64,000 bases of DNA. Source: an uncultured Candidatus Saccharibacteria bacterium (GTDB taxonomy: Bacteria; Patescibacteriota; Minisyncoccia; Phycocordibacterales; DATGWK01). Of this stretch, positions 1-59,254 are shown one piece after another (the stretch's first letter is position 1; every line of letters begins with the position of its first letter). Position numbers and translations under genes: made by a program. The stretch lies in NCBI GenBank assembly GCA_964428845.1, contig CAYRZH010000005.1:1647-65646 (forward strand). The letters run 5' to 3'. The notes beneath the pieces were generated by a model, which saw nothing but the letters and a program-made list of their open reading frames with translations, made no database searches and was not told the origin of the DNA.

Positions 1-993
1 TTGATATATGAAATCCTCAAACATGCCAGAGAGAAACTTTCCTGGGACAGAAAAATTTACTTGGCTGGGAATATAAAGGGGGTGGCAACTTTGCCTTTTC
101 TTTCTAAAATACAATCTGGCGATATGGTTGTTGCCGAGCTTTCGAGTTGGCAACTGCAGGGTTTTGGTGAAAGCAAAACATCCCCGCATATAGCTGTCTT
201 CACAAATTTCCTCGATGATCACCTGAACTATTATAAAGACGACAGAAAAAAATATTTTAAAGACAAATCATACATATACAAATATCAGAAAAAAGGAGAT
301 TTTTTAGTTGTTTCTGAACAAGCCCTCAAGTACATTCGGGGTACAAAAGATAGACCGACGGGCAAAATTGTCGCTCCCAAGACTCTACCCGCTTCCTTTA
401 AGACGGGCTTGAGTGGTAACCACAATAGAATCAACGTATCGCTTGCTGTCGAGGTAGCAAAAATTTTAGGAGTAGAGGAAAAGATTGTAAGGGAAGCGGT
501 TCGGGACTTTAGAGGTGTGCCCGGAAGGCAAGAGCTTGTCTTAAAAGCCCATGGGATCGAAATCTACAACGATACTACTTCTACAACGCCGGACTCTATC
601 GCAGTTGCTCTCGAATCTTTCGGTAAAAAAAGAAATGTAGTGCTCATAATGGGCGGAACAGACAAAGGTCTCGATGTAAAAGAAATTTTTGATAACATAA
701 ATAAATATTGTAAAACAGTCGTACTTCTTCCTGGGACAGGAACAGAAAAGTTTAAAAAACAAATAAATAAGATTAAAAATAAATCTCTCCCTATCATCGA
801 AACAAAAAATCTGAAGGAGGCGATAAGGGAGGCGCTGAAAGGAGCTAAACGTGGTGATCGTATCATTTTTAGTCCAGGGTTCACCTCTTTTGGCATGTTC
901 AAAAACGAGTACGATAGAGGCGAGAAGTTCGACCGGGAATTGGCGAAAGTTAAAAAGGATTTACCAAAAATATTGGGCAAAGGTCAGCTTTAA
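1..993 (+). CDS. murD: UDP-N-acetylmuramoylalanine--D-glutamate ligase (MurD), C-terminal part; 5' end truncated by the window edge
   Basis: C-terminal Mur-ligase domain with ...GGTDKGLD... and SPGFTSFGMFKNEYDRGEKF typical of the MurD C-terminus. Lies immediately upstream of murC. Confidence 0.6.
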   Translation: MIYEILKHAREKLSWDRKIYLAGNIKGVATLPFLSKIQSGDMVVAELSSWQLQGFGESKTSPHIAVFTNFLDDHLNYYKDDRKKYFKDKSYIYKYQKKGDFLVVSEQALKYIRGTKDRPTGKIVAPKTLPASFKTGLSGNHNRINVSLAVEVAKILGVEEKIVREAVRDFRGVPGRQELVLKAHGIEIYNDTTSTTPDSIAVALESFGKKRNVVLIMGGTDKGLDVKEIFDNINKYCKTVVLLPGTGTEKFKKQINKIKNKSLPIIETKNLKEAIREALKGAKRGDRIIFSPGFTSFGMFKNEYDRGEKFDRELAKVKKDLPKILGKGQL

Positions 994-4511: not shown

Positions 4512-4679
4512 GCGGCGAGTATACAAAGCAGTTCTTTGGCGTAACCTTGTTGGTGGTCATAGCCAAAAGATGCTGATAAAAACTTTAATAGTTCGGCATT
4601 TTCTGGCTATGACTACCAGTGTGGTATGTCCTCTGGCAAAATCAAAACTGGCGAAAGCCTTGAGAAAGGGAAAAGCGCC

Positions 4680-5291
4680 ATGCACAAGCAAACTGCAGAG
4701 TTGATTGGCCGGATCGCCCAGAATCTTCCGGACATGGATGGAGACATCATGCAGGGCTGGATCAACAACCCCCGTGGTCTCCAGGGGGCTCTTAGATTGG
4801 CCCTCTGCCAACCAAAAGCCGGATCTGTTCCGAAGGAGGAAACTCCTCTCGACACCATCATCCGTGTCGATCGCACCATCCGTCCTGCCTACCCAAGCTG
4901 GGCAACGGAGGTGATGCACCCCGAACTGGAGACTGTTGGGCCTGCCGAGTACGACCTTGCCAAACGAATCAATCTCTGGTTCCACAACGCCCAGATAGTC
5001 GAAGGGCGATCGATGGGCACTGTCATCTACGGATTTCTGAAGGCAACCGATGGTCTGAAAACATGTCTCGGCCTTCACGGCGCAGTGGAGATTCAGCAGA
5101 AGGGCATCGTCGTTTTCCGAAAACTCTTCGGAGGTAGGGCAGTGTTCTGCTGGAAGTCGGTCGTTCGCGACCGCGATGGCAGCCTCCTCGTTCCGTACGT
5201 CTATGACGACGGTGTCAGTGTTGTGGTGCGCTGGCGCTGGCTCGGCCATGACTGGGTCTCCGACGGCCCTGCGGCTCGCTTCGTAAGTTGA
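4680..5291 (+). CDS. Hypothetical protein encoded in GC-rich cassette 1 (203 aa from ATG 4680; alternative start ATG 4626 gives 221 aa)
   Basis: ORF in a ~60% G+C stretch, with GAAAGGG SD-like site 9 nt upstream of ATG 4680 and on the same strand as the promoter and terminator. The competing antisense ORF 4557-5537(-) overlaps the next gene and looks like an antisense artefact. No family recognised. Confidence 0.4.
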   Translation: MHKQTAELIGRIAQNLPDMDGDIMQGWINNPRGLQGALRLALCQPKAGSVPKEETPLDTIIRVDRTIRPAYPSWATEVMHPELETVGPAEYDLAKRINLWFHNAQIVEGRSMGTVIYGFLKATDGLKTCLGLHGAVEIQQKGIVVFRKLFGGRAVFCWKSVVRDRDGSLLVPYVYDDGVSVVVRWRWLGHDWVSDGPAARFVS

Positions 5292-5490: not shown

Positions 5491-7419
5491 ATGGACAACG
5501 ATCGCATCACATATTTCGCAGAGACCGACTCGCGCAATAAGCGAGTAGCATTTGGTATAAAATCAAAAGACCGATCTCGCCACGTCTACGTCATAGGTAA
5601 GACAGGTATGGGTAAATCCACCCTTCTTGAGAATATGGCTGTCCAAGACATCCAAAATGGGGAAGGCATGGCTTTCATAGATCCACACGGCAAGACTGCC
5701 GAGCTCCTACTTGAATACGTACCACAAGATCGCATGAAAGATGTGGTATATTTCGCGCCTTTTGACACCGAATACCCGATTTCCTTCAACGTCATGGAGG
5801 ATGTTGGTCCCAACAAACGCCATTTGGTTGCAAACGGTCTCATGAGTGCATTCAAAAAGATTTGGGTCGATGCTTGGTCGGCCCGCATGGAGTACATTTT
5901 GAATAATATTTTACTCGCTCTTCTCGAGTACCCAGATTCGACCCTGATCGGTGTAAATAGAATGCTAGCCGATAAAGACTATCGCAAGAAGGTCGTCGAC
6001 AATATCACCGATCCGTCGGTAAAAGCTTTTTGGACAGACGAGTTCGCAAAGTATGGCGATCGATATATGCAAGAAGCGGGAGCGGCAATTCAAAATAAAA
6101 TTGGGCAGTTTATCGCTAACCCTTTGGTGCGTAATATCATCGGCCAACCAAAATCGAGTTTCGATCTGCGAAAGATGATGGATGAAAACAAGATAATGAT
6201 CGTCAATCTCTCCAAGGGTCGCGTGGGCGAGGCCAACGCCAATCTCTTGGGTAGTATGCTCATCACAAAGATCTATCTGGCGGCCATGTCTCGTGCTGAT
6301 ACAAGTGAGAGTAAACTCAAGTCTCTTCCACAGTTCTATCTTTATGTCGACGAATTTCAGTCTTTTGCCAACGAATCTTTCGCCGACATTCTTTCGGAGG
6401 CTAGAAAATACAAGTTGAATCTAACCATGGCTCATCAATATATCGAGCAAATGTCGGAAGAAGTTCGAGCGGCAGTGTTTGGTAACGTCGGTACCATGAT
6501 CGTTTTCCGAGTGGGCGCTTACGACGCCGAAGTCCTCGAGAAGGAATTTGCCCCCACCTTTAGTGTAGAAGATCTGGTCAATCTGGGGTTTGTACAGATA
6601 TATCTTAAACTTATGATCGACGGCGTGACGTCTCCACCTTTTTCGGCAACCACACTGCCGCCGATCGATAAACCAGACATTTCATTCAGAGACGATATCA
6701 TAGAAAACTCAAGAAAAACCTTTGCTTCTCCAAGGAGTGAAGTGGAAGAGCAAATCAAAAAATGGCACGAGCCAGTAACTTCTATACGAAGAGATGATAG
6801 ACCAAGGCCGCCGCAAGGGACTGTAGAGTTTTCGCCGCGTCCGCAAACCCAAGCGCCGTCGTCTATGCCATCCCAACTGCCTCAACAACCGTCCCAACCG
6901 CAACCTGTTTCGAAGGTGTCACAACCACCACAACCCTCACAACCACCGCCTGCACCGCAACCTCCGCAACAAACTCCGCCACCTCCAAGACCTCCAGAGC
7001 CGCCCAGATCTATCCAGCCCACTTCTCCTCAACGGCCCCTTCAACAATCACCGCAGCCGCCGAGACCGGATTCCCATCGAGATCAACTTCCGCATCAGGC
7101 TCGACCAGTTTCTCTAGACACGCTCAAAAAAGATAAAGGACCAAGTGGTAAAAATCTTTCAGAGTTGAAAAACGCCCTTAGGGATTTGGTAGAACAGACA
7201 AAACAGCACAGCGAAAAAAAGGATGAGGGGCAGGAAGGGAAACACAACAACAAACCTCAAGAAAAACCGGCGATAGGGAATGGAAATCATAAATCCCAAG
7301 TCAAAGATAATCCTAAGCCTTCAAAAGATTCACCGCCACAAAGTCACCCCCCTCAAAAAGAAAAACCTCGGGAAGTTCCAGAAGATGTACTCCGCAAAGT
7401 CATCAACGGATCAAAGTAA
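5491..7419 (+). CDS. VirD4/TraG/TraD-like type IV secretion coupling ATPase with long C-terminal Pro/Gln-rich low-complexity tail
   Basis: Walker A VIGKTGMGKSTLLENM and Walker B-like YLYVDEFQSF. The N-terminal ITYFAETDSRNKR matches the CPR 'T4SS DNA-binding domain' protein family. The last ~210 aa are PQPSQP-type repeats. Confidence 0.6.
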   Translation: MDNDRITYFAETDSRNKRVAFGIKSKDRSRHVYVIGKTGMGKSTLLENMAVQDIQNGEGMAFIDPHGKTAELLLEYVPQDRMKDVVYFAPFDTEYPISFNVMEDVGPNKRHLVANGLMSAFKKIWVDAWSARMEYILNNILLALLEYPDSTLIGVNRMLADKDYRKKVVDNITDPSVKAFWTDEFAKYGDRYMQEAGAAIQNKIGQFIANPLVRNIIGQPKSSFDLRKMMDENKIMIVNLSKGRVGEANANLLGSMLITKIYLAAMSRADTSESKLKSLPQFYLYVDEFQSFANESFADILSEARKYKLNLTMAHQYIEQMSEEVRAAVFGNVGTMIVFRVGAYDAEVLEKEFAPTFSVEDLVNLGFVQIYLKLMIDGVTSPPFSATTLPPIDKPDISFRDDIIENSRKTFASPRSEVEEQIKKWHEPVTSIRRDDRPRPPQGTVEFSPRPQTQAPSSMPSQLPQQPSQPQPVSKVSQPPQPSQPPPAPQPPQQTPPPPRPPEPPRSIQPTSPQRPLQQSPQPPRPDSHRDQLPHQARPVSLDTLKKDKGPSGKNLSELKNALRDLVEQTKQHSEKKDEGQEGKHNNKPQEKPAIGNGNHKSQVKDNPKPSKDSPPQSHPPQKEKPREVPEDVLRKVINGSK

Positions 7420-20240: not shown

Positions 20241-20798
20241 ATGAAATTGCTTGATGAAGCTATCCTTTTTGCGGGCTCCCGAAGAGGGGCTCCGCTAAGT
20301 GATCTCGAGGTCACGCTCCTCGTCCTACTCATGGACAGGGTCAGGTGGCCGGTGCCGCAGCAGGTCTTCGAGGCCTGGGAGGGGAACTTCTACAACTGCG
20401 CTGTCGAGCTGGGTATCGGGAGGCCTGGGGAGGAAGAAGTCTTTCTCGTTCGCCGACCGAACACCGATCGGTATTACCCCGGTCAGTGGCATATGCCGGG
20501 GAAGGTCATTCTGCCGGGGATGAATATCCAAACCACTCTGGCGGCTCTCATTGACAATGAACTTGGTGGTGTGGATCTCGGACATATGACTCGGATCGAT
20601 ACATTCGAATTCTCGAAGGTTGATCGTCCGCGTGGTCAAGGTGTCTGTTTCCTGTTCCACGCTTCTGTGGATGTTGCGACCGCGGAACTGCTTCCCAACG
20701 GCCAGTTCTTCCCGGTTGACCAACTGCCGGAACCAATGATCGGCCACCACATCCCCATGATCAGAAGGCTGTTCTACGGTCGAGGCATCTCGCTCTAG
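20241..20798 (+). CDS. Nudix-fold protein with a degenerate Nudix box (GC-rich cassette 2)
   Basis: PGQWHMPGKVILPGMNIQTTLAALIDNELGGV occupies the Nudix box (GX5EX7REUXEEXGU) but most catalytic Glu/Arg residues are replaced. About 60-65% G+C. Confidence 0.5.
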   Translation: MKLLDEAILFAGSRRGAPLSDLEVTLLVLLMDRVRWPVPQQVFEAWEGNFYNCAVELGIGRPGEEEVFLVRRPNTDRYYPGQWHMPGKVILPGMNIQTTLAALIDNELGGVDLGHMTRIDTFEFSKVDRPRGQGVCFLFHASVDVATAELLPNGQFFPVDQLPEPMIGHHIPMIRRLFYGRGISL

Positions 20799-24416: not shown

Positions 24417-25103
24417 TCACCGGCCGACAGGCTTCCATCCACCGCGCACATCGGCGAAGGATGGGCGATGAGGATCGAGAACCCATTGGAGCAGGTAACA
24501 GTTGTGGTCGACGATTCGCGGGTCCCCTCGCCTCACTTCATCCGGGGTGAAGATTGTCCACTCACCCTCGAAACCCTCCACGTCCACCACAGAGACCTTC
24601 CTGCGGTGCATGATTGTCGCGCAAGCGCAACGTCTTTCGGGTTCGTCGTGGATCGTCACACCGAGGAACTGGATACCCGGTCTCATGGGGAGGAGATCAT
24701 CTCCGGCGTCACGGAAATCCCTTTCCAGGGCGCTTGCTGGCGTATCGAATCTTCGGATAACTGTGCACGGGCTGTGGTACAGCCCGGCCCACGCGTCGCC
24801 GACCTCGGTCGCCGGATCGCGAAGCTTCAGGGCAAATCCCAGAAACTCGTTACCCTTCCACACTTCATGAACGATCTGAACCGAAGCGCAGAATCCTGCC
24901 ATGCCGACGAGAAGTTCGAAGACCTCTTTCGGCACGCCGCCCATCGTTGTACTCCTGCTTCCATGCCGGGCCCGTTCGGTCAGCTCTGCGATGTGGGAGA
25001 TGATTGGGGCGAGCTCCACGAGCGGAATGTCCCTGATCATCCCCAGGGCACTAAGCGCCAGGGACTGGTGAGAGCTGTCTCGCGTCTGCGCAATCGTCTT
25101 CAT
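24417..25103 (-). CDS. Hypothetical protein, 228 aa (GC-rich cassette 3)
   Basis: ORF in ~57% G+C DNA, flanked on the same strand by a perfect consensus promoter and a terminator. AAAGAAAGGG SD-like site before the ATG. No family recognised. Confidence 0.5.
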   Translation of the reverse strand: MKTIAQTRDSSHQSLALSALGMIRDIPLVELAPIISHIAELTERARHGSRSTTMGGVPKEVFELLVGMAGFCASVQIVHEVWKGNEFLGFALKLRDPATEVGDAWAGLYHSPCTVIRRFDTPASALERDFRDAGDDLLPMRPGIQFLGVTIHDEPERRCACATIMHRRKVSVVDVEGFEGEWTIFTPDEVRRGDPRIVDHNCYLLQWVLDPHRPSFADVRGGWKPVGR

Positions 25104-39531: not shown

Positions 39532-40569
39532 TCAGATCAATGTGGCAACCATTCTCCGTATCGCTTGACCCCTCTCTTCGAGCTTGGGAACAGGGAAGGC
39601 TGATTCTTGGTGTGCCCTCATGGATTCGAATCCGCCCGGGTGCAGCAGCCTTTTGATGGTACAAGCTAGTTTATCGACAGAACCAAAGTAGACCCCCTCT
39701 GAAGCACCAAGTTCTACCAGCTTCCATGGGTCCTTACCGATTGTAGCTGGCCGGCCTTTGAGTGCGACGGTGGTACAGAAGTCAATGACGGGTTTACGCA
39801 GGCAAGCTGCCTGGATGCCTATTGTCGAATTGAACTCTACCACCATATCGCACCCAATGACTATCTCGGAGGTGGGGATTCCGACGTGTTTACCAACGAC
39901 CTTTACCGGACAGCCGGCATACCGCCAGACATCCTCGTACAAAGATGGGCTATTCAGATCACCAGGATGAAATCCAATCAACAGTTCGATCTGCGAACCA
40001 AACCTTCGATTGAGCGAACCAACTGCTTCTCCGGCTGCTCCAAAAAGCAGCATGTTAAGGGCAAGATACTTGTCGCCTGGGCAAAGGATGAGTTTGCGGT
40101 CATCGAAGACCGAGAGTCGCTCTCGTGCCTGAACCCGTGTCTGTACGGGGAAAGCAAACTCCTCCCATCTTGGATTTCCCGTCGCTACGATGTTGGCTTT
40201 CGGGAAATAGGTGGCTGCATCCCGTCCTTCATCCGCGTTGATGACAAAGAGTGTTTCCACGAAATCTCGGACTGGCTCAAAAGCCGGTAGTCGGTGATTA
40301 CCAAATGTGTCGGCATAAAGACTGCAACGTACCCCGATTCGATGAGCTTCTGTTACGGCCATCACCTCGTCGTCAGACAGGTTGGACATTGTTACCACCA
40401 AGTTGTTAGCTGAGGCGATTTCGTGCTTGATAGCCTCGGTTGGCAGAGCTTCTGCTCGTCCACCGCGCAGGAAAGACACAACCTCGACACCACGCTCTTG
40501 GAGTACTTCTCCTAACATTCGCATAACTTCTGACTGCGCAAAGTCACCGGCCACAAGCACAGTTTTCAC
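39532..40569 (-). CDS. GT-B-like sugar transferase with weak LpxB (GT19)-like motifs (GC-rich cassette 4)
   Basis: GTG start 6 nt after an AGGAGG SD. N-terminal VLVAGDFAQSEVMRMLGEVLQERG resembles the LpxB N-terminus (ALVAGEASGDILGAGLIRALK). The LILCPGDK and CDMVVEFNSTIGIQAACLRKPVI regions fit a GT-B C-domain. About 50-55% G+C. From memory only. Confidence 0.4.
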   Translation of the reverse strand: MKTVLVAGDFAQSEVMRMLGEVLQERGVEVVSFLRGGRAEALPTEAIKHEIASANNLVVTMSNLSDDEVMAVTEAHRIGVRCSLYADTFGNHRLPAFEPVRDFVETLFVINADEGRDAATYFPKANIVATGNPRWEEFAFPVQTRVQARERLSVFDDRKLILCPGDKYLALNMLLFGAAGEAVGSLNRRFGSQIELLIGFHPGDLNSPSLYEDVWRYAGCPVKVVGKHVGIPTSEIVIGCDMVVEFNSTIGIQAACLRKPVIDFCTTVALKGRPATIGKDPWKLVELGASEGVYFGSVDKLACTIKRLLHPGGFESMRAHQESAFPVPKLEERGQAIRRMVATLI

Positions 40570-40645
40570 CAAACACCTCCTTCTTCCTGGTTTTAAGGTT
40601 TTTTATCTCGGAATAGGCACAAAAAATTACCCATGGTCCTATAGA

Positions 40646-56032: not shown

Positions 56033-57001
56033 ATGGCTTTCGTCGATGAAATAAAACTACATCTTGAGGCGGGCAGTGGTGGTTCTGGGGTTGTCCGTTG
56101 GCGTCACGAGAAAGGAAAGGATAAAGCCGGAGCTGCCGGTGGAAATGGTGGAAGAGGTGGGGATGTGTACATGCAAACAGTCCGTGATCTGGGCGTACTT
56201 GCCCGATACAAACAGATAAAAGTTTTTCGTGCCAAAAATGGTGAAGATGGTATGCAAAGTAGCATGCATGGCAAAAAAGGAGAAGATCTGTCTATAGATG
56301 TCCCCATTGGTAGTGCTGTCACAAATCTTCTAAATGGTAAAAAGATAAATTTTCTAAAGGAAGGGGAGAAGGTCCTGGTTCTGTCTGGTGGTAACGGGGG
56401 GTTAGGAAACGAGCATTTCAAAGCTTCTACAAATGTAAAACCGAAAGAACATACTCCAGGGAAAGCGGGCGAGTCCGCCGATTTCCTAATAGAGCTCGAA
56501 CTTGTCGCAGATCTTGGGCTTGTTGGTCTTCCGAATGCCGGTAAGTCTAGTCTACTCAACGCTCTGACCAATGCCAAATCAAAAGTAGCAAGCTATCCAT
56601 TTACTACTCTCGAGCCTGATCTGGGGGACATGTTTGGCTTTATTATCGCTGATATCCCGGGTCTCATTGAAGGAGCCTCTATGGGTAAGGGACTCGGTCA
56701 CAAGTTTTTGAGACACATAAAGAGGACGAGAATGATTCTTCATTGTGTAGCAGCCGACAGTGAAGATATTTTGAATACGTACAAAACAATCCGCAATGAG
56801 CTCAAAACATACAGTAAAGAACTATCAGAAAAACCAGAGATTATTATAATCACAAAAATAGATGAAGTTCCCCAGGAAGTTGTTAAAGAAAAAACAAAAA
56901 TACTTTCAAAATTCTCAAAACACATTTTTACTGTTTCTGTGCTCGATGATTCATCTGTGAAGGGTCTACGGGATGGGCTGATTAAAATTTTGAACAAATA
57001 G
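56033..57001 (+). CDS. obg: GTPase Obg/CgtA
   Basis: Glycine-rich Obg fold (GGSGVVRW...GGNGGRGGDVY) and G-domain GLVGLPNAGKSSLLNALTNA, DIPGLIEGA, TKID. Confidence 0.8.
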   Translation: MAFVDEIKLHLEAGSGGSGVVRWRHEKGKDKAGAAGGNGGRGGDVYMQTVRDLGVLARYKQIKVFRAKNGEDGMQSSMHGKKGEDLSIDVPIGSAVTNLLNGKKINFLKEGEKVLVLSGGNGGLGNEHFKASTNVKPKEHTPGKAGESADFLIELELVADLGLVGLPNAGKSSLLNALTNAKSKVASYPFTTLEPDLGDMFGFIIADIPGLIEGASMGKGLGHKFLRHIKRTRMILHCVAADSEDILNTYKTIRNELKTYSKELSEKPEIIIITKIDEVPQEVVKEKTKILSKFSKHIFTVSVLDDSSVKGLRDGLIKILNK

Positions 57002-57017
57002 AAAGCGCGCCGTCTTC

Positions 57018-57662
57018 TTAGACTAGCGCGCCTTGAGGTCTCCTTTCTCTCATCATCGTGCGGAGGATGAGGCAGACCGTGATGCCCGAAGTGATTGCTG
57101 CTCTCGTTCCGTAAAGAAATCCGAGGGCATCGTTTTTCTCTATCGCGGGCACAAGACAGAGAATCGACGAGATGCAAATGCTGGCCCAGGTGAAGAGTGA
57201 TTCGGTCTTCTCGTTCTGTCCCCAGAGCTTCTGGGCGAGGGCAGTGTAGCCGATCACCATAAGAATCTGGGTCAAGACGTTCGAAATCGTCGCCGCAAGT
57301 TCGTTGCCCACGTAGAACCGCAAGATGCACCAGAGTGCAACGATTCCTGCAGACCAAATGAGGCATCTTACTTGGAATCGGCTGAACTTCACCCGAAGCT
57401 CTTTTCTGCAGAGCTGTATCAGGGCCACTGCCACGAGAATCGAACCCGTAGATACAATGGCGCTCAAGTTCCCGATGTTCCCGACGAGACTGTGGTTCGG
57501 GGAGTTCCAATAACTCCAGAAGCCGATGGCTATTGTTGTACCGAAAATAATCCAGGATGCCAAGACGGGGCGAATCTTGCCGCGGAGGGCAAGATAGATG
57601 TACCATGCGGTGCCGAGCCCTATGCCGGCAACCGACAACAGGACTGCTGCACTCGATAGCAT
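57018..57662 (-). CDS. Hypothetical 6-7 TM membrane protein, 214 aa (GC-rich cassette 5)
   Basis: Start ATG (rc 57660-57662) 6 nt after a GGAGAG SD-like site. About 55% G+C. Hydrophobic helices throughout. No family recognised; size and topology are compatible with a small-solute transporter. The alternative-frame ORF 56740-57669(-) was rejected. Confidence 0.45.
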   Translation of the reverse strand: MLSSAAVLLSVAGIGLGTAWYIYLALRGKIRPVLASWIIFGTTIAIGFWSYWNSPNHSLVGNIGNLSAIVSTGSILVAVALIQLCRKELRVKFSRFQVRCLIWSAGIVALWCILRFYVGNELAATISNVLTQILMVIGYTALAQKLWGQNEKTESLFTWASICISSILCLVPAIEKNDALGFLYGTRAAITSGITVCLILRTMMRERRPQGALV

Positions 57663-57692
57663 GACACACTCTCCATTCAAAAGAACTTTCTT

Positions 57693-57713
57693 ATGGTGAT
57701 ACGTTATCACCAT
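57693..57713. promoter_or_regulatory. Perfect 9-3-9 palindrome ATGGTGATA-cgt-TATCACCAT in the leader of the cassette-5 gene (operator-like or leader hairpin)
   Basis: Lies between the -10 (57729-57724) and the start codon (57662) on the minus strand. Confidence 0.35.
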
Positions 57714-57723
57714 TTCTGCTACT

Positions 57724-57752
57724 ATGATAGCATATTTGACTCTTTTTGTCAA
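57724..57752 (-). promoter_or_regulatory. Sigma70 promoter TTGACA-17-TATCAT (minus strand) for cassette 5
   Basis: On the minus strand TTGACA (57752-57747), a 17-nt spacer and TATCAT (57729-57724). Confidence 0.45.
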
Positions 57753-57829
57753 TAAAAAAGATATATCAAAAGCGCCAATCTTAGGCGTATAATTCGAGTA
57801 ACTTTTGAACTTATGATACAATCGCCGTT

Positions 57830-59254
57830 ATGAACAAGGAATACGTCACTACCGTCGGTCTTGAGATACATGCGGAACTCAAAACCAAGACAAAAATGTT
57901 CTGTGATTCCAAAAACGACCCTGATGAAACTAGGCCAAACGTAAACATTTGTCCGATATGTATGGGGCACCCCGGGACACTTCCGGTTACGAACAAAGAA
58001 GCAGTGAAGCATGTCCTTCGGGTGGGGGTGGCTCTGGGTGGAACTCTAGCAGACTTTACAGAGTTTGATCGCAAAAATTATTTTTACCCAGATATTCCTA
58101 AGGGCTACCAGATCAGCCAGTACAAAAATCCTCTCGTTGTCGGTGGAAGCCTTCTCGGGGTAAAAATCACAAGAATCCATCTTGAGGAGGATACCGCAAA
58201 GTCAACCCATGACACGGGCGAGCATAGTTTAGTCGACTTCAATCGGGCTGGAGTGCCTCTTATGGAGCTTGTCACCGAGCCGGTGATTCATTCGGCTCAA
58301 GATGCTTCAAATTTTGCTAAGGAGCTTCAGCTTTTACTCCAGTATTTGGGAGCTAGTGATGCCAACATGGAGAAGGGAGAGATGCGAATAGAGGCAAATA
58401 TTTCAGTCGCTCCCGCTGGTAAACGCGGTACGAAAGTCGAAGTCAAGAATCTGAATTCGTTTCGTTCGGTTGAGAGAGCAATTCTTTTTGAAACAAAAAG
58501 GCATGTGGAATTGATCGAAGGAGGTGGAATTGTCGTCCAGGAAACCAGAGGCTGGGACGAGACTAAAAATACTAGTTTCTCGCAGAGGCTTAAAGAAGAA
58601 TCACATGATTACAGGTACTTTCCAGATCCAGATTTACCTAAGCTCAAACTGTCAGAAATTAAAGATTTTCAGAGGGAAAAATTAAGGGAGGAACTTCCTG
58701 AATTACCCTGGCAAAAGAGAGAAAGGCTAAAAAAGGAGTTTGGTCTAAAAGATGAAGATGTCGAAGTTTTTGTACGTTCTCATGAGTGGGGCAAGTATCT
58801 CGAGTCGGTCGCGGCATCTCTTGGTGGAAATAAAAAACTTGTTGTTCTCGCTTCCAACTATATAACATCTGATCTAGCGGGACTTGTTAAAAATTCTTCT
58901 GTTGTCTGGGACGGCAATACTCCTACCGCGTCAAATTTTTCAAGGCTAATGCTGATGATTGACTCGGGCAAGATCTCCTCACGTGGTGCGAAGGATATCC
59001 TAAAGGTCATGTACGAGAAAGGCACTGAACCCGAGGTGGTCGCAGAAAAACAAAATCTTCTACAGAAGAGCGACGAAGGCGAGTTGGGAGCTATTATCAA
59101 AAAGATTATTGATGCAAACAGCGCGGTTGTCCTAGATTATAAGAATGGTAAGGAGCCAGCACTTCAGTTTCTGATCGGGCAGGCGATGAAGGAGACAAAA
59201 GGTTCTGCTAACCCAGAAATTCTAAAAAAGTTATTTTTGTCATCCATCCAGTAG
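57830..59254 (+). CDS. gatB: Aspartyl/glutamyl-tRNA(Asn/Gln) amidotransferase subunit B (GatB)
   Basis: VGLEIHAELKTKTKMFC N-terminal motif and a C-terminal YqeY-like tail (LQFLIGQAMKETKGSANP). Confidence 0.85.
   Translation: MNKEYVTTVGLEIHAELKTKTKMFCDSKNDPDETRPNVNICPICMGHPGTLPVTNKEAVKHVLRVGVALGGTLADFTEFDRKNYFYPDIPKGYQISQYKNPLVVGGSLLGVKITRIHLEEDTAKSTHDTGEHSLVDFNRAGVPLMELVTEPVIHSAQDASNFAKELQLLLQYLGASDANMEKGEMRIEANISVAPAGKRGTKVEVKNLNSFRSVERAILFETKRHVELIEGGGIVVQETRGWDETKNTSFSQRLKEESHDYRYFPDPDLPKLKLSEIKDFQREKLREELPELPWQKRERLKKEFGLKDEDVEVFVRSHEWGKYLESVAASLGGNKKLVVLASNYITSDLAGLVKNSSVVWDGNTPTASNFSRLMLMIDSGKISSRGAKDILKVMYEKGTEPEVVAEKQNLLQKSDEGELGAIIKKIIDANSAVVLDYKNGKEPALQFLIGQAMKETKGSANPEILKKLFLSSIQ

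Follow-up and report, generated by a model that had tools for sequence, protein, structure and literature searches.

Organization of the locus

The window, i.e. the whole 64,000-nucleotide stretch of DNA that was analyzed, carries a compact gene unit in the space between obg and gatB. The initial annotation had placed there a 214-residue open reading frame (ORF) on the minus strand, preceded by a TTGACA-17-TATCAT promoter and a GGAGAG Shine-Dalgarno (SD) sequence, and all of these features are present (Table 1). Both flanking genes were confirmed with Pfam, and the Pfam neighbors of the ORF in the window are obg, gatB, MYG1 and a sulfotransferase. The ORF is referred to below as the 7-TM gene, for the seven transmembrane (TM) helices predicted in its product.

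Table 1. Positions of the features of the obg-gatB junction in the window, and of the predicted helices in the protein
Feature	Position	Strand	Remarks
7-TM coding sequence (P0001), 214 aa	57018..57662	-	ATG start; from the ORF list
Helices in the AF2 model of P0001	residues 2-26, 34-52, 63-85, 95-117, 120-148, 156-175, 179-206		
Shine-Dalgarno sequence GGAGAG	57669..57674	-	6 nt 5' of the ATG of the 7-TM gene; read from the sequence
Sigma-70-type promoter of the 7-TM gene, TTGACA-17-TATCAT with TG extension	57724..57752	-	
Leader hairpin, 9-bp stem (AUGGUGAUA/UAUCACCAU), 3-nt loop	57693..57713	-	
Terminator hairpin, GC-rich 14-bp stem	57002..57034	-	5' arm formed by the last codons (Gly-Ala); TAA in the loop
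U-rich terminator tail UUUCUAUUUGUU	56990..57001	-	overlaps the last codons and stop of the convergent obg
obg, left flank	56033..57001	+	Pfam GTP1_OBG and MMR_HSR1
gatB, right flank	57830..59254	+	Pfam GatB_N and GatB_Yqey
Extended -10 box of gatB, TGaTACAAT	57814..57822	+	ends 7 nt before the gatB ATG; no SD

The locus is best explained as a monocistronic unit in which a strong promoter, a leader of roughly 55 nucleotides and an SD sequence precede the coding sequence, and in which the terminator and the stop codon overlap. The -35 hexamer (57752-57747) and the -10 hexamer (57729-57724) of the promoter match the consensus at 11 of 12 positions. Most of the family members on other contigs likewise have the arrangement TTGACA...TGnTAnnAT in front of the gene.

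Long ORFs arise by chance in GC-rich DNA, and two further long ORFs, in different frames or on the opposite strand, overlap the region of the 7-TM gene. The gene might thus be viewed as a spurious ORF, or as the product of a chimeric assembly in a GC-rich patch. This view is refuted, and we give it next to no weight. The protein has homologs with E-values down to 1e-77, belongs to a large family and yields a high-confidence structural model. Furthermore, the boundaries of the anomalous composition coincide with those of the gene, and the promoter and the terminator are preserved in other contigs.

Terminator

The hairpin at the 3' end of obg, which was at first described as weak, is a good intrinsic terminator of the 7-TM gene. 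On the strand of that gene, the segment 57034-57002 folds with an energy of -20 kcal/mol, which is equaled by 1 of 200 shuffled sequences, and its stem is continued by a U-rich tail. On the obg strand, the same palindrome has an energy of -18 kcal/mol and a poor U tract. The hairpin was not picked up by a consensus terminator scan of the locus.

A stem with a CGCG core, a translated 5' arm and a stop codon in or beside the loop was also found for family members on five other contigs (L001, L002, L003, L005 and L104). The GGCGCG sequence of the 5' arm is read as Gly-Ala, which explains the conserved C-terminal Gly-Ala-Ser of the family. The conservation of these residues reflects the structure of the RNA and not the function of the protein.

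Leader RNA

In AT-rich hosts, nearly all family members have a TTGACA...TGnTAnnAT promoter of their own and a leader of 40-65 nucleotides with a recurrent RGNTCYTT motif ahead of the SD sequence. The leader hairpin is kept in the four closest family loci as a stem of 8 bp, with compensatory changes in four of the eight pairs, and none of 200 shuffled versions of the window leader folds as well as the original. The leader is possibly a regulatory RNA.

An Rfam scan of the leader (E-value of 10 or better) gave no known aptamer or riboswitch. A resemblance to guanidine-II or preQ1-type hairpins was considered and dropped because the loops vary among the four leaders. Sequestration of the SD sequence was also abandoned: the accessibility of the SD/AUG region is 0.50, compared to 0.56 +/- 0.13 for 45 genes of the window, and is thus within the background. 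A covariance model of the leader recovered only the leader itself and a marginal match in the window at 40558-40595 on the minus strand. This match (E-value 0.16) is located at the start of the fourth of the high-GC islands described below, and is probably due to similarity around the SD sequence and the start codon.

The segment 57688-57700, which comprises the 3' arm of the leader hairpin and the linker, is perfectly complementary over 13 nucleotides to 57253-57265. The latter segment contains the codons of a conserved ILMVIG motif and is located 422 nucleotides into the mRNA. The complementarity is absent from contig L002 and may be due to chance.

Protein family

When 1.84 billion cluster representatives were searched with a HMMER profile, 338 proteins had E-values of 1e-3 or better, and 242 of these had E-values of 1e-10 or better. 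The 338 representatives are counted at the level of 50% identity clusters. The best 150 of them are mostly about 200 residues long, and most match nearly the whole profile. A word-indexed search of 5.8 billion proteins returned only four relatives, with identities of 47-64%, and at least seven proteins when a large alignment was used. The 7-TM proteins therefore constitute a real conserved family. Nine residues are nearly invariant in the family, namely Tyr21, Pro32, Trp37, Tyr51, Trp111, Gln132, Tyr139, Trp159 and Arg187, and all of them are retained in the window protein. Asn62 and Asn65 are conserved as well.

None of the models in Pfam or NCBIfam matched the window protein, and 134 of its relatives gave only scattered, noise-level matches to these collections. 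Neither PHROGs nor PADLOC contained a match to the protein, and sequence-profile searches of the PDB returned nothing meaningful. A tandem paralog or a second copy of the gene was found neither in the window nor in 80 related loci. The family contexts examined (RNase J/MFS, UvrD, CSD/BacA, YchF and obg/gatB) have no conserved gene neighborhood that would hint at a substrate.

One relative outside the window (P0044, 314 residues) consists of the 7-TM core and an extra C-terminal unit of three TM helices with an LPQ motif. This unit matches the Pfam PQ-loop model with an E-value of 1.5e-3 and a score of 18.7 bits, for a cut-off of 22, and its sequence matches in the PDB are SemiSWEETs only. A homolog search with the unit returned nothing.

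Overall, the proteins form a new, if modest, sequence family of known fold, positioned outside the named families. The gain is modest too: the family is defined by its signature residues, its structure is modeled with confidence, and the expression unit is well delimited for cloning.

Fold and topology

The initial annotation of the gene product as a polytopic membrane protein with six or seven TM segments is in agreement with the later analysis, in which the hydropathy profile has seven peaks and the AF2 model has seven helices. The model was calculated from an alignment of 134 sequences and has a pLDDT of 95.8 and a pTM of 0.89. Loop 1, loop 3 and the C-terminal tail are enriched in Lys and Arg residues. 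By the positive-inside rule, this distribution corresponds to a topology with the N terminus outside and the C terminus inside.

In a Foldseek search of the PDB, cystinosin ranks first (7zk1, TM-score 0.65; 8dkw, 0.63). The KDEL receptor, SWEETs and cystinosin fill nearly all of the top 15 ranks, and other folds have TM-scores of at most 0.36. The matches are moderate, with TM-scores of 0.5-0.65 and E-values no better than 1e-2. The alignments with the SWEET chains 5cth, 5ctg and 5xpd extend over some 220 columns, with TM-scores of about 0.5. An independent AlphaFold model calculated from five sequences gave the same set of fold matches. A library of viral structures gave a PQ-loop repeat protein of Indivirus as its best match (E-value 2.2e-4, TM-score 0.60). 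Part of the 7-TM protein could also be aligned with a phage SemiSWEET, over 80 columns and with an rmsd of 2.0 Å.

Judging from the models, the 7-TM protein has the fold of the SWEET/PQ-loop/KDEL-receptor superfamily. SWEETs, PQ-loop proteins such as cystinosin, and KDEL receptors are built as 3+1+3 helices. When the N-terminal half of the family was aligned with the C-terminal half using hhalign, the match was weak (E-value 1.3e-3) but in register, with TM2-3 placed on TM6-7 and Trp37 on Trp159. The full-length fold matches and this half-to-half alignment suggest that the 7-TM protein, too, is arranged as 3+1+3 helices.

Insertion at the obg-gatB junction

The window derives from the small genome of a bacterium of the Patescibacteria (Paceibacteria type), and its GatB is 61-70% identical to GatB of Paceibacterota, Zambryskiibacteria and Taylorbacteria metagenome-assembled genomes. 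Sequences around gatB were fetched for 80 related loci, among which the gene order ATPase, MYG1, obg, gatB is conserved. In 57 of the 80, obg is followed by gatB on the same strand with a median gap of about 30 bp, and the gap does not exceed 190 bp in 39 of these 57. The 7-TM family is absent from the sequence fetched at all 80 loci. Because the junction is normally so tight, the 7-TM gene is an insertion relative to the common state, and the comparison of spacers that was proposed together with the initial annotation has borne this out.

The closest GatB among those found is on the metagenome contigs L002 and L086 (79% identity over 301 residues). The order on these contigs is the 3' end of obg, a terminator, the 7-TM gene on the minus strand, its promoter and gatB, as in the window. 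Furthermore, their 7-TM protein is the closest known relative of the window protein, with an identity of 64%. The comparison, which includes the native composition described below, favors an insertion that predates the divergence of the two lineages: the unit would have entered the normally tight junction in an ancestor shared with the L002/L086 organism.

The remaining 18 of the 57 relatives have obg-gatB gaps of more than 300 bp (300-1700 bp) occupied by unrelated ORFs. Some of these ORFs are hydrophobic with an N-terminal TM or signal-like segment, others are small and hydrophobic, and several encode small soluble proteins.

The window, L002 and many Paceibacteria relatives have an extended -10 box (TGnTAnnAT) that ends 5-9 nucleotides before the ATG of gatB and is not accompanied by an SD sequence. 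By a strict pattern it was counted in 15 of the 80 loci, and more were recognized by eye. Thus gatB probably has a promoter of its own and is translated from a leaderless mRNA. The presence of this promoter is a likely reason why an insertion between obg and gatB is tolerated.

In L002, an extra 175 bp (1244-1418) lie between the terminator of the 7-TM gene and the obg stop codon. They contain a long palindrome (CAGAATTCACACAAGTGCC ... GGCACTTGTCTGAATTCTG) and are absent from the window.

Signs of mobility were looked for around the unit. No ORF of recombinase size adjoins it, its neighbors being obg and gatB. Target-site duplications or inverted repeats amount to short matches at chance level, and the TTTTGAAC repeat is missing from L002. 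As for the 3' hairpin, all close relatives have it, and it is a terminator of the ordinary kind. A tblastn search of phages and plasmids and a scan of IMG/VR viral contigs returned no relative of the 7-TM protein. In the sequences compared, nothing points to a dedicated mobility mechanism.

Composition and origin

The 7-TM gene has a GC content of 0.538 and a GC3 of 0.67, and the GC content of the window is 0.424. The GC3 of 53 long ORFs in the window has a mean of 0.416 and a median of 0.395, and the 7-TM gene is among the five outliers. Third codon positions are occupied by C in 40% of its codons, compared to 18% in obg and the P-type ATPase gene. Usage of AAC is 100% compared to 34% in seven pooled genes of the window, and usage of TTC is 86% compared to 29%. 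In 10 of 17 distinct family loci the GC content of the gene exceeds that of its flanks by at least 0.04, and in none is it clearly lower. The family is also native to genomes with a GC content of 52-65%.

Four other single-gene islands with a GC content of 52-60% are present in the window, at 4626-5291 (+), 20241-20798 (+), 24417-25103 (-) and 39532-40572 (-). They have the same bias towards C-ending codons as the 7-TM gene, with C at 0.28-0.41 of third positions against a background of 0.18. One of the islands encodes a NUDIX protein, and the other three have no match in Pfam, PHROGs or PADLOC. The first island adjoins a 642-residue ORF at 5491-7419 (+), which combines a Walker-A motif (GKTGMGKS) with a C-terminal tail that is long, Pro/Gln-rich and of low complexity.

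The initial annotation considered the gene to be a foreign cassette, and added that a copy with native composition in related genomes would contradict this. Its anomalous composition and its own promoter, SD sequence and terminator were confirmed. Such a native copy exists, however, on L002/L086, where the 7-TM gene has a GC content of 0.458, its flanks have 0.457, and its GC3 is 0.47. Because this copy occupies the same slot, and because signs of mobility were not found, a recent foreign origin is only partly supported.

The window copy could nevertheless be a recently acquired, GC3-rich allele, brought in as a new insertion at a tolerant junction or by xenologous replacement of a copy already present, from the same GC-richer donor pool that gave rise to the four other islands. 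We regard this as possible, if rather doubtful. It would account for the GC3 of 0.67 in surroundings of about 0.39, for the excess of C-ending codons and for the islands that share this bias. The junction is variable, as seen from the unrelated ORFs in 18 of 57 relatives; the gene is richer in GC than its flanks at many of the family loci; and the family members in GC-rich hosts are possible donors. Furthermore, the protein is 64% identical to its syntenic counterpart, a distance over which an old foreign signal would be expected to have faded. On the other hand, the closest known relative genome carries the nearest known relative of the protein at the same place and in the same orientation, the repeats at the flanks are at chance level, and an integrase or transposase is absent from beside the gene. 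Relatives are likewise absent from the phage, plasmid and viral-contig collections, as are matches in PHROGs and PADLOC.

The old insertion shared with L002/L086 remains the preferred reading, and the GC3 of the window copy then calls for an explanation, because it should have decayed since. It could stem from a later xenologous replacement in the window lineage, from insertions that occurred repeatedly at a permissive junction, or from a bias of another kind.

Likely function

Taken as a whole, the locus is probably best explained as encoding a seven-helix inner-membrane carrier of the SWEET/PQ-loop fold, inserted long ago and shared with the L002/L086 lineage. The most likely function of the 7-TM protein, by analogy with proteins of the same fold, is that of a small-solute carrier. 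It would operate by alternating access, as a uniporter or coupled to protons, and its cargo would be a small polar metabolite that crosses the membrane of the auxotrophic Patescibacteria cell. The side chains of Trp37, Trp111, Gln132, Tyr139, Trp159 and Arg187 may line its pocket and gates. The suggestion of a small-solute transporter in the initial annotation is supported by the fold, SWEET being among the families listed there, but not by a sequence match to a named family in Pfam, NCBIfam or hhalign.

The fold alone does not prove transport, because the KDEL receptor has the same fold and is a receptor. The 7-TM protein might thus be a receptor or sensor similar to the KDEL receptor, or might handle a lipid-linked sugar or polyprenyl phosphate in the manner of MPDU1 and the LAB_N-type PQ-loop relatives. 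Such a role appears unlikely to us. KDEL receptor chains are indeed among the top fold matches, a few relatives match the LAB_N, PigN, GPI2, EPS_sugtrans and Wzx-like models weakly, and the invariant Arg of TM7, together with a conserved Glu/Asp, is reminiscent of ligand binding by KDEL receptors. However, the weak matches occur in 1-3 of 134 members at noise-level E-values, as is typical of hydrophobic proteins. An envelope-biosynthesis neighborhood is not conserved among the family contexts examined, and cystinosin and PQ-loop transporters head the matches in both structure libraries.

PnuC, the nicotinamide riboside or nucleoside transporter that was initially offered as a candidate class, did not hold up. 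Bacteria of the candidate phyla radiation (CPR) must salvage cofactors, and the size of PnuC proteins (about 200-240 residues) is suitable. PnuC has also been described as related to SWEET and PQ-loop transporters (Feng and Frommer 2016, cited in PMC5972207). Nevertheless, the Pfam model NMN_transporter (PF04973) did not match the protein at an E-value of 10 or better, and does not figure in the top 25 families by number of matches to the 134 relatives. The hhalign probability of a match between the 134-sequence family profile and E. coli PnuC is 0.09%, and PnuC chains are absent from the best 50 Foldseek matches in the PDB. Neither an NAD-related gene (nadR or nadA) among the Pfam neighbors nor an NAD riboswitch in the leader (Rfam) was found. 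Membership in the PnuC family is thus largely refuted, and we consider it very improbable.

A wider proposal would combine the carrier with its leader. The proteins would then represent an undescribed prokaryotic branch of the seven-helix SWEET/PQ-loop/KDEL-receptor fold that passes between bacteria, Patescibacteria and others, as an intact unit of promoter, leader, coding sequence and terminator, and the leader, with its covarying hairpin and the pyrimidine motif before the SD sequence, would be an RNA that senses a ligand or signal. This is a long shot. If the leader is indeed a sensing RNA, the substrate would become apparent from its effector.

Patescibacteria (CPR) cells lack the means to synthesize most building blocks, yet few of their uptake systems have been identified. 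The preferred assignment, a conserved, well-expressed and so far unannotated 7-TM carrier, would make the protein a candidate for a missing importer of these bacteria.

Comparison with known systems

The closest structural counterparts of the 7-TM protein are PQ-loop proteins (PF04193) such as cystinosin, with which it shares seven TM helices and a weak internal duplication. At the junction of TM5 and TM6, the family consensus reads Y-x-P-T ... N-T-E-S ... W, with a spacing that in our own reading resembles that of the PQ ... S-x-E-G-x-S signature. However, PF04193 matched neither the window protein nor its 134 relatives. The window protein has no PQ dipeptide, and Thr-Ala takes the place of the consensus Pro-Thr. 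It differs from cystinosin in being prokaryotic, about 210 residues long and devoid of lumenal domains.

SWEETs (PF03083, MtN3_slv) are similar in fold and length. With TM-scores of about 0.5, OsSWEET2b and AtSWEET13 rank high in the fold search, and a conserved Trp of the present family is located at equivalent places in TM2 and TM6. The MtN3_slv model, on the other hand, did not match the protein at an E-value of 10 or better and is outside the top 25 families of the 134 relatives. The SWEET pocket presumably contains an Asn where the present family has the invariant Arg in TM7. Comparison with LbSemiSWEET by hhalign was not significant (E-value 0.014, probability 3%), and direct homology to SemiSWEETs was rejected for this reason.

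The KDEL receptor (PF00810) has a fold match with a TM-score of about 0.55 and a nearly equal length, but it is a eukaryotic trafficking receptor with no sequence match to the window protein. PnuC (PF04973) is a small vitamin carrier whose relatedness to SWEET and PQ-loop proteins has been described (PMC5972207), but it has neither sequence nor profile similarity to the window protein and is not among its top fold matches.

Single-chain, seven-helix members of the SWEET/PQ-loop group are rare in prokaryotes, with 20 proteins in a 2018 survey (PMC5972207). The few bacterial proteins of the MtN3 clan with seven TM helices that have been reported were all recognized through motifs of the MtN3 or PQ-loop type (Jia et al. 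2017/2018, PMC5742349, PMC5972207). The present family resembles these SWEET-like fusions in being prokaryotic, single-chain and seven-helical. It differs from them in having neither the MtN3_slv nor the PQ-loop motif, and it is larger, with 338 representatives. Such single-chain members bear on the origin of the eukaryotic 7-TM forms from 3-TM SemiSWEET units.
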